A DNA stretch of 64,000 nt from Tamlana sp. (GTDB lineage: Bacteria; Bacteroidota; Bacteroidia; Flavobacteriales; Flavobacteriaceae). This document shows positions 13,350-50,225 of this stretch, one piece after another; the first letter of the stretch is position 1; each line of letters begins with the position of its first letter. Below the pieces are notes generated by a model. That model was not told where the DNA came from. It saw nothing but the letters and a program-made list of their open reading frames with translations, and ran no database searches. Where the stretch lies: the NCBI GenBank assembly GCA_049451635.1, contig JBMTVT010000001.1, positions 9,644-73,643 of the forward strand. The letters run 5' to 3'. The translations under genes were made by a program, and so were the position numbers.

Positions 13350-13405
13350 GAGAGATCAGCGATTATCGAAGGATAAGATTAAGACCTTAATTCATAATCA
13401 CTCTC
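13350..13405 (+). promoter_or_regulatory. Nested three-helix structure in the rpsD 5' leader (candidate S4 autoregulatory leader)
   Basis: gagag/ctctc encloses gattat/ataatc, which encloses aagg/cctt. It ends 17 nt before the rpsD ATG. Confidence 0.4.
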
Positions 13406-42581: not shown

Positions 42582-42613
42582 AAAAAATCCTGACAAAAAT
42601 TGTCAGGATTTTT
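42582..42613. terminator. Bidirectional intrinsic terminator (ends the gat-aspS operon on the minus strand)
   Basis: aaaaatcctgaca / tgtcaggattttt, with A/T runs on both sides. Confidence 0.8.
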
Positions 42614-42663: not shown

Positions 42664-45600
42664 TTATTTATTTCGCATCACCTTTACATTCATCTCTTCC
42701 ACTTTTTTGTCAGATAACATGGAAGGTGCGCCAAACAATAAATCGTCACTGGTGCCTGTTTTTGGAAATGCCATAACCTCACGAATAGAAGCTTTTTTTT
42801 CTAAAATCATCATCAGCCTATCAACTCCCCAAGCAATACCACCGTGCGGTGGTGCGCCGTAATGGAACGCTTTATACATGGTACCTACACTTTTCATCAT
42901 CTCTTCTTTGTTGTAGCCCATATTTCTGTAAGTAGCTTCTAAAATTTCAGGTTTGTGCGCCCGTACCGAACCGCCACCAATTTCGTAACCATTCAAAATC
43001 AAATCGTATTGTTGCGCGATAATGGTACCTATTTCAGCATCTTTACCGTTCATGTGTTTTTCAATATCATACACTGCAGGCATTGAGAAGGGGTTATGGG
43101 TAAATGTCCAACGGCCGTCATCAGTTTTTTCAAACATCGGGAAATCTATTACCCAAGCAGGACGTAATTCTTTCGGGTTTATTAAACGCAACATACTGCC
43201 CAATTCCTGTCTAACTGCATCCAATGCTTTATTGGCAGTAGCATAGTCGGCAGCTGAAAAGAAAACAATATCACCAACTTGTGCATTGGTGGTTTTAATG
43301 ATTCCAGCAGCAATATCTTCACCTAAAAATTTAATAATGGGCGACTGCAAATTGTTTTCATTTACAATAATATATGCTAAACCACCCAAACCATGCTGTT
43401 GTGCAATGGCCGTTAATTTTTCAATTTGCCCTTTAGATAAGCGCTTTTTACCTTGTTCTTTAGCCGATACCTTGATGCATTTAACAATACCACCTTCTTC
43501 AATGGGTTTGCTAAACACTTGAAAGGTTGTTTCCTTAACAATATCTGTAATATCTTGAAGCTGTAAACCAAAGCGTAAATCGGGTCGGTCGCAACCGTAT
43601 TTATCCATGGCGTCTTGATAGGTAATCACTTCAAAAGGATGTAAAATCCATTTATTGCCATAAATTTTTGTAACCACTTCATTAAACATTTTGGTGTTTA
43701 AGTCCATAATTTGTTGCATGCTGGCGTATGCCATTTCTAAATCCAATTGCGTGAATTCAGGTTGTCGGTCACCTCGGGAGTCTTCATCCCTAAAACAACG
43801 TGCTATCTGGAAATATTTCTCGTAACCACTTACCATCAACATTTGTTTAAATTGCTGAGGTGCTTGTGGTAGTGTGTAAAAAGCACCGGCTTGTTTTCGA
43901 GATGGGACTATAAATTCGCGAGCGCCCTCATCGGTTCCAGCACTTAAAATGGGAGTTTCAATTTCAAGGAAATCTTCTTCATCTAAAATATCTCGAAGCA
44001 GTTTAATTACTTTATGGCGATTCACAATGGTTCTGCGAACATCATCATTTCTGTGGTCTAAAAACTTGTATTGAAAACGTGTGTTTTCATTGGTTTTTGT
44101 GGCTCGTTTTATTTCAAAAGGCAGTGTTCTAGATAGGTTTAAAATATCCAATTCATTAGCTTCCAATTCAATTTTCCCAGTTCGCAAGCTCGGGTTGTAA
44201 TCGTCTTCTTTACGTTGTAGAATGGTTCCAGAAACCGTAATAACCGATTCTGGTTTTAGTTTTACCAACTCATCAAGATTTGGAAATGATTCCCTGCTTA
44301 AACGCACTTGGAATTTCTCGGTACTGGAATCTCGTAAATCGATAAAAATGAGTTCCCCATGGTCGCGAACACTGGCAACCCAACCAGCAAAAGTTACCAC
44401 CTGAGAAATACTATCATCTGAAATATCAGTAATCAAATGCGTGCGGTATTTATCTTTTATAATTAGTGGGATTTCAGGAAGTTTTTCTTCTTCTTTAGCT
44501 TCTGGCTTTTGGCTTTTGATTTTTGGCTTTTCATCACTTACAATTTCCGACTTCTGTCTTTCCACATCTCCAGCCAGCGAAGCTAAAATACCCTCTCGAA
44601 TGACTTTTCCTGAAGCGCCTTTACCAATAATGGCAATTACTTTTCCAACTAAGATACCCGCCTTTCCTTGATTACCAGCTTTAATATCGTTTGCAATAGC
44701 TTCATTTTCAGTAATTACTTTGCTTATGGCATCATATATTTTGTCTTCGGAAATCGTGTGCGCTTCAAAATACTTATTATAATCAAAATGTCTGTCTTTT
44801 AAATAATTTGTGATAGCATTTTGTACTAAAACCGACGTGATTTTCTCTTCTTTAAAAAGCTGAAAAATTTCAATTAAATGCTCTATACGGTGAATATCGC
44901 CATAGTCTTCTGTACTAATATTGTTGACTAATGTTTTTGTAACAAACGACGGGTCTTTAAGCACATCGTTTATTTGCATAAATGTTTTGGAGCGTAGTGC
45001 GTCTGCCGTAAAAAACTTAGCATCTTGAGGTAACACACCACCTTTAATTATTATGGACTCTACGGCAAAAGGTAATGCGCTTATATCAACGTCAATTGAT
45101 TCTACAACATCTTTAATGCAAACAAAAGGTAAATCGGGTTCAGATATAAAACGGTAATCGGCTTCATATTCCTTTTTGCGCATGGTTTTGGTTTGCTTCA
45201 AATCGGCATCCCATAGGACGGTGGTTTGGTCTGGTCTAAACTCCTTGTGTTCCAGGTAGTAGTTGAGTTGTTTTTCTACTTCTTCCTTTAGGGCATCTAC
45301 CATGAACTTAAACGAGTTTAAGTTTTTTATTTCAGTACGTGGGTTTAAATTGTAACTGTGTTTTTTACGAAGTGATACCGAAACATCCGATTTAAACTCA
45401 CCCTTTTCAAGATTGGCTTCAGAAATTTTTAAATTTTGAACAATACGCTGAATGTATTGCGCATAAGTTGACGCATCTTCAATATGACGAATGCAAGGTG
45501 TGGTAACAATCTCAATAAGAGGTACGCCTGCTTTATTAAAATCTACCAACGACACTTGTTTTTCATGTATTAATTTAGCAGCATCTTCTTCAATATGAAC

Positions 45601-46002
45601 TTGCGACAAATTAACGGTAAACTGAGACCCATCATTTCTAAAACAAGACACTTGCCCATCAGGAATTATGGGGTTGTGAAACTGAGTAATTTGTATATTT
45701 TTTGGGTTATCGGGGTATTCATAATGTTTTCTGTCCCAAGAAATAACCTCATTTTCAAAAGTAGATTTTACAGCTTTACCAAAATAAATAGCTTTCTTAA
45801 TAACTTCTTTATTTATTGCCGGGAGCACACCCATTTGTCCAGTACAAACCGAACAAATATTTTGATTTGGGATATCAACTTCTTCATTGGGGCAAGAACA
45901 AAATAATTTGGTCTTTGTGTTTAACCGAACATGCGTTTCCAGCCCGATTACCAATTCTAACTCGTGTGCTTTTAATGCAGCATCTAATTCTTTCAATTCC
46001 AT
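42664..46002 (-). CDS. gatB-aspS: Fusion protein: Asp-tRNA(Asn)/Glu-tRNA(Gln) amidotransferase subunit B (aa 1-~478), K/E-rich linker, then bacterial-type aspartyl-tRNA synthetase (aa ~518-1112)
   Basis: Uninterrupted 1112-aa ORF. GatB motifs: VIGLETHVRLNTKTKLFCSC, DRKHYEYPDNPKNIQITQ, VHIEEDAAKL, VDFNKAGVPLIEIVT. AspRS motifs: FLEIETPIL, FRDEDSRGDRQPEFTQLDLE, GAD-type insertion, GGIAWGVDRLMMIL. Confidence 0.88.
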   Translation of the reverse strand: MELKELDAALKAHELELVIGLETHVRLNTKTKLFCSCPNEEVDIPNQNICSVCTGQMGVLPAINKEVIKKAIYFGKAVKSTFENEVISWDRKHYEYPDNPKNIQITQFHNPIIPDGQVSCFRNDGSQFTVNLSQVHIEEDAAKLIHEKQVSLVDFNKAGVPLIEIVTTPCIRHIEDASTYAQYIQRIVQNLKISEANLEKGEFKSDVSVSLRKKHSYNLNPRTEIKNLNSFKFMVDALKEEVEKQLNYYLEHKEFRPDQTTVLWDADLKQTKTMRKKEYEADYRFISEPDLPFVCIKDVVESIDVDISALPFAVESIIIKGGVLPQDAKFFTADALRSKTFMQINDVLKDPSFVTKTLVNNISTEDYGDIHRIEHLIEIFQLFKEEKITSVLVQNAITNYLKDRHFDYNKYFEAHTISEDKIYDAISKVITENEAIANDIKAGNQGKAGILVGKVIAIIGKGASGKVIREGILASLAGDVERQKSEIVSDEKPKIKSQKPEAKEEEKLPEIPLIIKDKYRTHLITDISDDSISQVVTFAGWVASVRDHGELIFIDLRDSSTEKFQVRLSRESFPNLDELVKLKPESVITVSGTILQRKEDDYNPSLRTGKIELEANELDILNLSRTLPFEIKRATKTNENTRFQYKFLDHRNDDVRRTIVNRHKVIKLLRDILDEEDFLEIETPILSAGTDEGAREFIVPSRKQAGAFYTLPQAPQQFKQMLMVSGYEKYFQIARCFRDEDSRGDRQPEFTQLDLEMAYASMQQIMDLNTKMFNEVVTKIYGNKWILHPFEVITYQDAMDKYGCDRPDLRFGLQLQDITDIVKETTFQVFSKPIEEGGIVKCIKVSAKEQGKKRLSKGQIEKLTAIAQQHGLGGLAYIIVNENNLQSPIIKFLGEDIAAGIIKTTNAQVGDIVFFSAADYATANKALDAVRQELGSMLRLINPKELRPAWVIDFPMFEKTDDGRWTFTHNPFSMPAVYDIEKHMNGKDAEIGTIIAQQYDLILNGYEIGGGSVRAHKPEILEATYRNMGYNKEEMMKSVGTMYKAFHYGAPPHGGIAWGVDRLMMILEKKASIREVMAFPKTGTSDDLLFGAPSMLSDKKVEEMNVKVMRNK

Positions 46003-47402
46003 TATATCACATCTTTTAAGAAGTTAGCAAATTTTAAAACGAGTTCGTCATTGTTTTTTGCAGCAGTAATCTGCAAACCTGTTTCGGTGCCTTGCGGAAT
46101 GGTTAATGTTGGTAATTGCCCAAGGCTAAAACCAACCGTATAGGCGTCACTTAAATACATGGCGTGTGGGTCTTTTAAACTATCTCCAATTTTTGGAGGT
46201 GAGCTAGGTGTAACAGGCGATAAAATAACATCTACCTCTTTGAAGTCTTGCTCAAAGTTTTGGGAAATAGCATCACGTAGCGCTAATCCTTTTAAATAAA
46301 TTTCGTCTGAAAACCCTTGTGATAATACTTGGTTGCCTCCAACAATACGTCGTTTGGTTTCTTCTGAGAAATTTTCAGAACGGGTAATGGCGTAAGATTC
46401 TTTAAGGTTTTTATCATCAATGCGATTACCGTAATTAGAACCATCTAAACGGGATAGGTTAGAAGCTGTTTCTGCCATGGCTAAGGTATAATACGTAGAA
46501 ACTAAAGTGTTTGAATCAAAAAAATCCAAAGACTTAACTTTAATGCCTTTAGTTTTTATTTTTTCAATGGATGCTAAAAAGTCAGCTTTAATTTTAGGGT
46601 CAATCGCGTCACTTTCAATGAAGTTTTTAAAGTAGCCAACGGTTTTTATGCCTTCTAAATTTTTAATGGTATCAACATCAATTTCTACGGAAGCGTAAGT
46701 GGTTTGATCTTTTACATCTTTACCGCTCATTATGTTCAGAACTATACGGATATCCTCAATAGATTTTGCAATAGGGCCAACACAATCTGTAGATGATGCA
46801 TAAGCCATTAAACCAAAGCGTGAAATACGTCCATAAGTGGGTTTTAAACCATACACATGATTATAACCAGCTGGTTGACGTACCGAACCACCAGTATCGC
46901 CTCCAATTGAAAAAACCGTATAATCTAAAGCTACATTAACCGCAGAGCCACCACTGGAACCACCACCTACCAAATTTGGGTTTATGGCATTTTTTACGGC
47001 ACCAAAAATGGTGTTTTCGCTAGATGACCCATGCCCAAAACTATCGCAGTTTTCTTTTACAATAGGAATAGCACCAGCATCGAGTAGTTTTTGAATAGCG
47101 GTAGCTGTATAAGCCGATTTGTAGTATTTTAATAGGTTGGAACTCGCCGTTGTGCAAGTGCCTTGAAGCATGTACACGTCTTTAATGCCAAAAGGAATGC
47201 CTTCCAATAAGCCAATGGTTTCGCCATTAGCTATTTTAGCATCCACTTTAGCAGCTAGGTCAAAAGCTAAAGAATCTAATAAACTGTTAACCGTGTTGTG
47301 CGTGTTTTGTTTTAGTAAGTTGAGTTTTTCCTGTATCAGGTCCTTACAAGATATATCCTTGTTCACCAATTGCTGATGAATTTTATGTATTTGAGATTCC
47401 AT
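46002..47402 (-). CDS. gatA: Amidotransferase subunit A (amidase signature family)
   Basis: 466 aa, ...GIPFGIKDV..., GGSSGGSA, GGDTGGSVRQPA. Its stop overlaps the fusion ORF start (TAATG). Confidence 0.88.
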   Translation of the reverse strand: MESQIHKIHQQLVNKDISCKDLIQEKLNLLKQNTHNTVNSLLDSLAFDLAAKVDAKIANGETIGLLEGIPFGIKDVYMLQGTCTTASSNLLKYYKSAYTATAIQKLLDAGAIPIVKENCDSFGHGSSSENTIFGAVKNAINPNLVGGGSSGGSAVNVALDYTVFSIGGDTGGSVRQPAGYNHVYGLKPTYGRISRFGLMAYASSTDCVGPIAKSIEDIRIVLNIMSGKDVKDQTTYASVEIDVDTIKNLEGIKTVGYFKNFIESDAIDPKIKADFLASIEKIKTKGIKVKSLDFFDSNTLVSTYYTLAMAETASNLSRLDGSNYGNRIDDKNLKESYAITRSENFSEETKRRIVGGNQVLSQGFSDEIYLKGLALRDAISQNFEQDFKEVDVILSPVTPSSPPKIGDSLKDPHAMYLSDAYTVGFSLGQLPTLTIPQGTETGLQITAAKNNDELVLKFANFLKDVI

Positions 47403-47404
47403 AA

Positions 47405-47674
47405 TTATTCTTCTATAATTTTAGAAACCACCAAATATCCGTTTTTCTCTTTTGGGAAATTCTCAATAATGATTTGTTTTTCCAGATCAGAACTTTCAAT
47501 CACTAAATCATCTCTCAAATTTTCTAAAGACACACAATTATTATGTTTGGTATTAAAGGAGTTGTTGTTTGTTGGTTGTGCATTTTTAATTACATCAAAC
47601 AATTTGTTAACCGCTTCACTTGGTTGTGCTCCTTTAATACTCGACAAAATATCGACCGTCATAATTTTACTCAT
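47405..47674 (-). CDS. gatC: GatC-like amidotransferase subunit C (divergent N-terminal half)
   Basis: 89 aa. The C-terminal half …LENLRDDLVIESS…ENFPKEKNGYLVVSKIIEE matches the GatC LReD…aP…g.f.VPkvie pattern. Sits 2 nt upstream of gatA. Confidence 0.6.
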   Translation of the reverse strand: MSKIMTVDILSSIKGAQPSEAVNKLFDVIKNAQPTNNNSFNTKHNNCVSLENLRDDLVIESSDLEKQIIIENFPKEKNGYLVVSKIIEE

Positions 47675-47691
47675 GTCTAAAATTTTAAATT

Positions 47692-47720
47692 AAAAAAGCC
47701 TTCCGGTTTCGGAAGGCTTC
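47692..47720 (-). terminator. Intrinsic terminator 17 nt UPSTREAM of gatC on the same strand (attenuator terminator)
   Basis: Minus strand reads aagccttccg-aaac-cggaaggctt followed by tttt: a 10-bp stem with a U-tract of 6 including the last 2 stem positions. Confidence 0.75.
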
Positions 47721-47749
47721 AAATATTTTCAAACAATAACCTTCCTGTC

Positions 47750-47797
47750 CTAAAAATTAGGATTATTGAAATTATTATTGTTATTGTTGTTTACCAT
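47750..47797 (-). CDS. Asn-rich leader peptide MVNNNNNNNFNNPNF (15 codons, 10 Asn)
   Basis: Hand translation of the minus strand: ATG GTA AAC AAC AAT AAC AAT AAT AAT TTC AAT AAT CCT AAT TTT TAG. The stop lies 4 nt before the candidate antiterminator segment GGAAGGUU. Confidence 0.6.
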   Translation of the reverse strand: MVNNNNNNNFNNPNF

Positions 47798-47813
47798 TGT
47801 ATTATTTGAAGGT

Positions 47814-47821
47814 CAAATATA
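47814..47821 (-). promoter_or_regulatory. Candidate -7 box TAtaTTTG for the leader/gat operon transcript
   Basis: Minus strand reads tatatttg, 16 nt upstream of the leader ATG. Confidence 0.35.
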
Positions 47822-48188
47822 TACAGAATAAATATATTAAGCACTATTTTTTCTAATATCGTAATATGTATTATCAAATTAATAAAAAACCTAAAGTTAA
47901 TTTGAAAGTTCAAAAATCTTTTTGTTGAATCACTTGTTTTAATGTATTATCAAAGATCAAAATTGTTATTTGAAACTTAAGATTTTCAATAGAAATAAAA
48001 TTTTAAAACAACAAAAAATCCATTTTAAGAAACTTTTGTTTTTTTTAAATTTTTCAAAAGGTAAAAAGTATCTTAAATCAATTTTAAGACACTTTTTAGG
48101 CGATTTAAGACACTTTTAAATAATTAACAAATGTTGATAATTTTATTTGTGAGCCTATAAAAAGCTTTTTAATAGGGTTATATTTTCG

Positions 48189-48196
48189 TATATTTG
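48189..48196 (+). promoter_or_regulatory. Candidate -7 box TAtaTTTG upstream of gyrB
   Basis: Consensus match, about 80 nt before the gyrB ATG. Confidence 0.3.
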
Positions 48197-48206
48197 TTTG
48201 TATTGA

Positions 48207-50225
<2,019 letters not shown>

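Follow-up and report, generated by a model that had tools for sequence, protein, structure and literature searches.

The window analysed here, a stretch of 64,000 nucleotides from a Tamlana species (Flavobacteriaceae), contains a 15-codon open reading frame (ORF) rich in asparagine codons immediately upstream of gatC, gatA and a gatB-aspS fusion gene. Together with the intrinsic terminator that follows it, this ORF forms a compact element, which is identified, with a probability that we put at about 0.8, as an asparagine-specific transcription attenuator of the ribosome-mediated, leader-peptide type that controls gatC-gatA-(gatB-aspS). An earlier note on this DNA, made from its letters only, had proposed that an asparagine-codon leader in front of the genes for Asn-tRNA(Asn) follows the logic of classical attenuation, and this proposal now finds support in the presence of the element in 12 named genera and in three-state folds of 36 sequences, all 36 of which behave as classical attenuation requires. 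The anatomy of the element, its conservation, its mutually exclusive pairings with their energetics and the functions of the downstream genes are what the analysis shows.

Leader ORF, putative promoter and terminator

The leader ORF (Table 1) reads, on the minus strand, ATG GTA AAC AAC AAT AAC AAT AAT AAT TTC AAT AAT CCT AAT TTT TAG, where 10 of the 15 codons specify asparagine and seven of these are consecutive; its position, codons and counts agree to the base with the earlier note. It holds the only run of at least seven AAY codons on either strand of the 64-kb window, the runner-up having five, and regex scans detected no second such leader in the window or in related loci L001-L080. Windows simulated with an order-2 Markov model (n = 100) contained AAY runs of at most five codons, and their most asparagine-rich ORFs of 8-30 codons had at most 8 asparagine codons. 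The notion of a chance low-complexity, AT-rich ORF lying beside an ordinary terminator draws on the low G+C content of the window (34%), as AAT-rich runs are commoner in such DNA, but is hardly credible: chance origin does not account for the data, because none of the 100 simulations reached the run length or the asparagine count of the leader, and it is already refuted by the conservation of the entire element across 12 genera while the flanks diverge.

A Bacteroidota-type -7 box (TATATTTG, matching TAnnTTTG), predicted to serve as the promoter of the leader, precedes the ATG by 16 nt, just where the earlier note had placed it, and a weak -33-like GTG is located at 47842-47844. The box is near-invariant in 36 aligned loci with variable flanks. 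The resulting 5' untranslated region (UTR) would be about 10 nt long, and an A occupies position -3 relative to the ATG in 65 of 94 leaders. The stem of the intrinsic terminator before gatC (47720..47695) has 11 pairs, 6 of them G-C, and closes a 4-nt loop, and the T-run is at 47697..47692; a terminator scan of the region recovered 4 terminator-like sites versus 0.1 expected from shuffled sequences. The distance from the leader stop codon to the gatC start is 75 nt.

Alternative structures of the leader RNA

The 131-nt leader RNA folds with a free energy of -30.1 kcal/mol (z-score -5.0 against shuffles), and in the ribosome-free state this fold consists of three parts: a long imperfect hairpin formed by regions 1 and 2, an apical hairpin holding the stop codon, and the terminator formed by regions 3 and 4. 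In the 1:2 hairpin, the asparagine codons of region 1 (AACAAUAAU..UUUC, 47782..47768) pair with GAAGGUUAUUGUU of region 2, located 3' of the stop codon; across 36 sequences 94-97% of the cells of this helix are paired, and the changes in it are one-sided only. The stop-codon hairpin is possibly a pause hairpin, and it shows one compensatory change, C-G to U-A, coupled to a replacement of proline by serine in the peptide (L004; also L115 and L117).

The stop codon in the window is followed by GACA (4 nt) and then by GGAAGGTT (47745..47738), which is complementary to AGCCTTCC (47718..47711) within the 5' arm of the terminator, so that the earlier note was right in describing a segment 4 nt past the stop able to compete with the terminator. 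The antiterminator duplex GGAAGGUU:AGCCUUCC has an energy of -12.9 kcal/mol, compared with -4.9 ± 2.1 kcal/mol for shuffled spacers, and duplexes at least as good were obtained with a fraction of only 0.0016 of the shuffled spacers and 0.0034 of random 29-mers from the window. In the aligned sequences, 99.7% of the cells of the 2:3 antiterminator helix and 95.2% of those of the terminated structure are paired, whereas control registers, in which the 3' partner was slid by 1-3 columns, are only 30-75% paired. The terminator stem carries compensatory changes at three pairs across loci.

Three states were then folded for each of the 36 sequences by means of three ribosome masks, where the stalled state was modelled with the A site of the ribosome on the last codon of the asparagine run and with RNA made up to region 3. 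In these in silico folds, a ribosome in the asparagine run allows the 2:3 antiterminator to form in 36/36 sequences (-8.7 to -16.7 kcal/mol, mean -12.5), a ribosome on the stop codon leaves almost no structure (mean -1.3 kcal/mol), and the ribosome-free RNA forms the 1:2 hairpin plus the terminator. In 35 of the 36 loci, 3-5 nt separate the stop codon from region 2, and the spacing from region 2 to region 3 is 28-34 nt, a geometry that, in all 36 folds, lets a ribosome at the stop mask region 2 and a ribosome at the asparagine run free it.

The following scheme is a prediction as regards the site of transcription initiation, the translation of the leader, ribosome stalling and regulated readthrough. 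Transcription would start a few nucleotides past the -7 box, and a ribosome would load at the leader ATG. When Asn-tRNA(Asn) is plentiful, the ribosome is expected to reach the TAG and to cover GGAAGG of region 2, in which case region 3 would pair with region 4 and the terminator would stop transcription before gatC. When Asn-tRNA(Asn) is scarce, the ribosome would stall in the seven-codon asparagine run and occupy region 1, leaving region 2 free to pair with CCUUCC of region 3 once this is made; no terminator would then form, and RNA polymerase would enter the operon. If no ribosome is present, regions 1 and 2 would pair and the terminator would again form. The operon in turn would yield Asn-tRNA(Asn) by aspartylation of tRNA(Asn) followed by amidation.

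The same arrangement could in principle specify a small transcript in its own right (a small RNA (sRNA) or a short mRNA), or an upstream ORF (uORF) acting on the translation of gatC or on mRNA stability, rather than a conditional attenuator. A promoter, a 48-nt ORF and a strong terminator would indeed yield a discrete RNA of about 120 nt, and attenuator-derived sRNAs such as rnTrpL exist, as mentioned in PMC7968998. A constitutive RNA of this kind would, however, leave the conserved, terminator-competing GGAAGG copy without a role, and most loci have no other promoter-like element in the approximately 20 nt between terminator and gatC, so that expression of the operon must traverse the terminator. 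The 75 nt separating the leader stop from gatC also far exceed the 10-14 nt typical of reinitiation (PMC4833913), and both variants are accordingly judged very unlikely.

Conservation of the leader among relatives

With the fusion protein as query, Flavobacteriaceae loci sharing 81-89% identity were collected as the best 80 of more than 586, and the order gatC-gatA-fusion is kept in every locus that is not truncated. The same leader, switch and terminator precede gatC in 36 of 77 upstream regions including that of the window (35 of 76 related loci). The consensus of the element is M-x(1-3)-N(3-8)-[N/R/L]-N-F-N-N-P/S-N/K-x-TAG, 3-5 nt, GGAAGGTTRTTGTT, about 15-20 nt, AAAGCCTTCC-loop-GGAAGGCTTTTTTT, about 20 nt and the gatC ATG. 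Metagenomes scanned with a pattern that covered the last leader codons only, and thus left regions 2-4 free, contained about 56 further complete elements on independent contigs, each with the same switch and then a gatC start; the remaining matches are chance matches within genes. Among six further genera sampled via the fusion protein, Litoribaculum, Yeosuana, Flavivirga, Siansivirga and Flaviramulus possess the leader, and Thalassobellus lacks it. The pooled collection amounts to 94 instances, comprising 81 distinct elements, 70 distinct ORF sequences and 62 peptides from 12 named genera.

The peptides are 14-17 codons long with 6-11 asparagines, of which an uninterrupted run of 3-8 codons is always in frame, and every change in leader length preserves the frame. 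Although the three bases upstream of the ATG and the second and third codons vary freely, the ATG and the TAG are constant in all 70 distinct ORF sequences. The comparative check suggested in the earlier note, namely the conservation of an asparagine-rich mini-ORF before orthologous operons, thus came out in favour of the leader. The ORF is absent from the public gene calls for the gyrB-gatC interval of six genomes (L201-L206), and no Rfam family matches the element; overlooked by both gene callers and Rfam, it represents an annotation gap.

A few instances deviate in structure. In the metagenomic locus L192 (minus strand, around position 919 of the reverse complement), the leader ORF and region 2 are intact and no terminator occurs within 90 nt, and this locus may be a disrupted or rearranged attenuator. 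L004 and L026 have 90-115 nt extra between the attenuator terminator and gatC, which places the leader 190-240 nt upstream versus about 75 nt, and the insert of L004 includes a G+C-rich, hairpin-like segment.

A translation-independent RNA switch has also to be considered, in which the AAY run would be an anti-antiterminator strand, or a site for a protein, tRNA or small ligand reporting asparagine status, and the ORF would be incidental. Several third positions are nearly fixed, as AAT is invariant at codons -4 and -7 and found in 65 of 70 sequences at -5, AAC occurs in 63 of 70 at -10, and the stop is always TAG, a pattern that looks RNA-constrained; the replacement of proline by serine is paired with the compensatory change in the hairpin, and the asparagine codons overlap the helix in part. 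On the other hand, the ATG is constant in 94 of 94 instances amid freely varying bases and codons 2-3 and is always in frame with the asparagine run and the stop, 2-4 asparagine codons usually lie 5' of the helix and are free of pairing constraint, and models of T-boxes and riboswitches give no match, even at an E-value of 10. As the distance from stop to region 2 also fits the ribosome-masking geometry of classical attenuators, such a switch appears unlikely, and the translated attenuator is preferred.

Leaderless relatives and distribution

When mapped onto the fusion-protein tree, the leader occurs in two large clades, one containing Tamlana, Algibacter, Mariniflexile, Confluentibacter and relatives and the other Polaribacter, with about 12 leaderless taxa scattered inside them, and it is missing from the entire Flavobacterium/Lutibacter/Flavicella clade. 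Loci with identical synteny, including some from different species of a single genus, differ in the 5' cassette only. Leaderless loci share a conserved cassette of their own, AAAACTTT[TC]GTAATTTTGCCAGCTTAAAAGTTTGAC, located about 20-25 nt before gatC, which reads as a promoter with -33 TTTG and -7 AAAGTTTG and includes neither an ORF nor a terminator; it is found in the last 60 nt or so before gatC in L006, L008, L013, L015, L016, L018, L021, L022, L035, L042-L051 and others. No hidden leader was detected within +/-4 kb in the leaderless loci, and their gatC upstream regions match no known RNA family.

Points against the proposed attenuator

Several observations weigh against the attenuator as proposed. 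The 1:2 pairing is no better than base composition gives (p = 0.12 against shuffles) and is given no weight for this reason. The 2:3 antiterminator helix shows zero compensatory changes in the aligned loci, as there is hardly any variation in regions 2, 3 and 4, and a compensatory test of it in the metagenomes is impossible, since region 3 is CCTTCC in every true instance; the switch is thus supported by conservation, energetics and geometry, not by covariation. The predicted 5' UTR is very short. The nearly fixed third positions of the leader indicate RNA-level constraints, and the synonymous AAT/AAC variation is neutral for a G-containing helix partner and so does not by itself prove coding. 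About half of the related species have a plain promoter in place of the leader, some with identical synteny, which makes the element dispensable. If the fused aspartyl-tRNA synthetase (AspRS) encoded downstream is the sole AspRS, a signal for asparagine only would also gate Asp-tRNA(Asp), and substantial basal readthrough would be required. The support for the attenuator, good as it is, is computational and comes from sequence comparison and folding.

Downstream operon and asparagine physiology

The earlier note had announced a gat-aspS operon downstream, and gatC, gatA, gatB and aspS are all present; aspS is not a separate gene, being fused to gatB. The operon genes are tightly packed. GatC has no Pfam match and scores 20.6 bits against TIGR00135 (cutoff 47), and in 77 related loci gatC is 64-90% identical and always followed by gatA. 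GatA reaches 417 bits against TIGR00132, under the equivalog cutoff of 481, and the divergence of GatC together with this sub-cutoff GatA suggests, as far as profile scores can indicate, a specialised GatCAB lineage. The AspRS part of the fusion is complete, with OB fold, class-II core and GAD domain, a bacterial-type enzyme joined to GatB in what is in effect a covalent half of an Asn 'transamidosome'. An identical protein is on record from a Tamlana sp. metagenome-assembled genome (MAG), NCBI names it 'bifunctional amidotransferase subunit GatB/aspartate--tRNA ligase AspS', and the fusion is kept in more than 586 genome loci at 81-91% identity. NCBIfam contains another fusion type, AspS-GatC (NF009460), and no paper discussing the GatB-AspRS fusion was found in the literature.

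No asnS, asnB or second aspS is recognisable near the locus in the window, which has no tRNA genes. According to the survey of 547 genera by Alperstein et al. 2014 (PMC4206432), Polaribacter sp. MED152 has asnA 0, asnB 0, gatCAB 1, aspS 1, asnS 1 and glnS 1 (Table S1), and ten other Flavobacteriales entries of the same table possess asnB and lack gatCAB, namely Gramella, Zobellia, Cellulophaga, Lacinutrix, Croceibacter, Maribacter, Robiginitalea, Krokinobacter, Flavobacterium branchiophilum and Riemerella. Because MED152, the one tabulated carrier genome, has no asparagine synthetase and a single AspRS, the operon is probably the asparagine-biosynthesis route of the cell, and we infer from this genome that carriers make asparagine on tRNA(Asn) only and that the fused AspRS is their sole AspRS. 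The sensed species, Asn-tRNA(Asn), is the direct product of the pathway of the operon, and if the latter is an asparagine-biosynthesis operon, the asparagine-codon leader corresponds exactly to hisL or trpL.

Table 1. Features of the leader element and of the operon downstream, in their order along the minus strand of the window
Feature	Position	Strand	Remarks
Bacteroidota-type -7 box TATATTTG	47814..47821	minus	sequence match to TAnnTTTG; putative promoter
Short A-rich 5' leader, -7 box to ATG	47798..47813	minus	sequence and length vary among loci
Leader ORF, MVNNNNNNNFNNPNF and stop	47797..47750	minus	15 codons + TAG, 10 Asn; from sequence
Seven-Asn-codon run, proposed stalling (sensor) site	47771..47791	minus	unique in window; exceeds simulations
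Region 1 AACAAUAAUAAUUUC, 5' strand of 1:2 anti-antiterminator helix	47768..47782	minus	inside ORF; minimum-energy fold
Small hairpin UCCUAA-UUU-UUAGGA holding the TAG stop	47748..47762	minus	apical part of 1:2 structure; fold
Region 2 GGAAGGUUAUUGUU, pairs with region 1 or, via GGAAGGUU, with region 3	47732..47745	minus	starts 4 nt past stop
Region 3 GAAGCCUUCCG, terminator 5' arm and antiterminator partner of region 2	47710..47720	minus	CCTTCC constant in instances examined
Region 4 CGGAAGGCUUU, terminator 3' arm and U-run	47692..47705	minus	terminator scan
gatC, first operon gene	47405..47674	minus	89 aa, divergent; weak NCBIfam GatC matches
gatA, amidase family	46002..47402	minus	466 aa; Pfam Amidase 2e-107
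gatB-aspS fusion, GatB then full bacterial-type AspRS	42664..46002	minus	1112 aa; start overlaps gatA stop by 1 nt
Intrinsic terminator closing the operon, AAAATCCTGACAATTTTTGTCAGGATTTTTT	42582..42612	minus	from sequence

Neighbouring features

The gene gyrB lies divergently upstream of the operon (48216-50225, plus strand) and is linked to it in nearly all loci (window, L001-L080 and L201-L206) in one of two arrangements, either divergent upstream as in the window or on the same strand downstream (Flavobacterium and some Polaribacter). The intergenic region between gyrB and the leader contains three copies of TTTAAGA[AC]ACTTTT (48024-48117, plus strand), two of them within a 41-nt direct repeat and one in a 16-nt inverted repeat with 48062-48077; these repeats are possibly an operator for the gyrB or the leader promoter. 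Elsewhere in the window (13361-13399, plus strand), an S4-Flavobacteria ribosomal-protein leader was found with the Rfam model RF03141 (51.5 bits, above the gathering score).

In related loci, the Flavo-1 RNA motif (RF01705) flanks the operon at L049:7429-7508 and L035:370-449 (a Flavobacterium and a Polaribacter). At L075:6340-6560, just past the fusion gene, there is a large, imperfect inverted repeat composed of triplets rich in AAT, AAC and AGC and of their complement (CCATTGCTATTGCCATTG...). The AAY run at L075:6345 was considered as a second leader and rejected, being part of this repeat and having no ATG.

Significance

This element makes asparagine one more of the few amino acids for which sensing by leader-peptide attenuation is known or predicted, and a classical mechanism would have been recruited for amino-acid synthesis on tRNA, a task solved by a T-box in Clostridium acetobutylicum. 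As a model of how ribosomes stall and how transcription is coupled to translation in Bacteroidota, a phylum without Shine-Dalgarno initiation in which, to our knowledge, such coupling has hardly been tested, the leader has the advantages of compactness, strong conservation and ease of mutation. It also opens a way into the physiology of Polaribacter, Algibacter and Tamlana, abundant marine degraders of polysaccharides that appear to lack asparagine synthetase.

A wider interpretation, to which we give an even chance, holds that no leader-peptide attenuator specific for asparagine, and no ribosome-mediated attenuator acting on tRNA-dependent amino-acid biosynthesis, precedes this one, which would sense the end product of the operon itself, Asn-tRNA(Asn), on behalf of a fused GatB-AspRS 'transamidosome', which is probably the sole AspRS and would tie the supply of Asp-tRNA(Asp) to the demand for asparagine. 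The same interpretation holds that attenuator and plain-promoter cassettes have apparently been exchanged among close marine Flavobacteriaceae, possibly tracking the availability of asparagine or alternative routes to Asn.

Comparison with known systems

No earlier description of an asparagine leader was found in the literature, although one may be contained in Lopatovskaya et al. 2010. The Rfam family RF01692 (Bacteroid-trp, a Bacteroidete tryptophan peptide leader RNA) is likewise a leader-peptide attenuator from the same phylum; its codons are for tryptophan, however, and its targets are trp genes, and the model gives no hit at the asparagine leader. In Flavicella marina (L062), a Bacteroid-trp RNA (58.1 bits; L062:7446-7568, plus strand) lies immediately downstream of the gatB-aspS fusion gene, so that a tryptophan leader attenuator neighbours a leaderless gat operon, and this match shows that the search works. 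The opinion of the earlier note that leader-peptide attenuation is little documented in Bacteroidota was overstated, given this RNA and Flavobacterium psychrophilum, where such attenuation has been inferred upstream of amino-acid operons (PMC9723704). The Rfam family RF01859 (Phe_leader) was rejected as a homologue, as its score of 40.9 bits falls short of the gathering score (55), the alignment lacks most of the long outer helix of the model and the part aligned with full confidence is the terminator; the likeness is architectural only.

In Clostridium acetobutylicum, the genes for tRNA-dependent amidation are controlled by a tRNA(Asn)-responsive T-box (Saad et al. 2012, J Biol Chem 287:20382, as cited in PMC4206432). 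To the extent of that citation, the two systems share the regulated function (non-discriminating AspRS (ND-AspRS) plus GatCAB), the signal (charging of tRNA(Asn)) and the output (terminator readthrough). They differ in the sensor, which in the T-box binds uncharged tRNA without translation and here is an asparagine-codon ORF proposed to be translated. The T-box covariance model has no match in 46500-48500 up to an E-value of 10 and none at gathering level in the whole window, and the suggestion of the earlier note that the leader is an analogous solution by a different mechanism therefore stands.

Leader-peptide attenuation of an operon for an aminoacyl-tRNA synthetase is known from the pheST leader (pheM) of E. 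coli. In both cases a synthetase-containing operon is placed under ribosome stalling on cognate codons, which for the asparagine leader is proposed; the AspRS encoded here, unlike the synthetase of E. coli, is not cognate to the sensed asparagine codons, as it is fused to GatB and catalyses the reaction with which Asn-tRNA(Asn) synthesis begins.

The closest parallels are the classical leader-peptide attenuators of enterobacterial amino-acid operons, hisL (seven consecutive histidine codons), trpL, pheL, thrL and leuL, and we know of no asparagine member of this group. Unlike these attenuators, with which it has no sequence homology, the leader of Tamlana is proposed to sense asparagine and belongs to a phylum without Shine-Dalgarno initiation and with a different promoter type. 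It resembles them in its short ORF with tandem regulatory codons, in a stop codon a few nucleotides before region 2, in the presence of a 1:2 hairpin, in the mutually exclusive 2:3 antiterminator and 3:4 terminator and in its location directly upstream of the cognate biosynthetic operon, and its run of seven asparagine codons closely parallels hisL. The asparagine leader is thus best described not as a member of an Rfam family but as the mechanism of the classical leader-peptide attenuators applied to a new amino acid.

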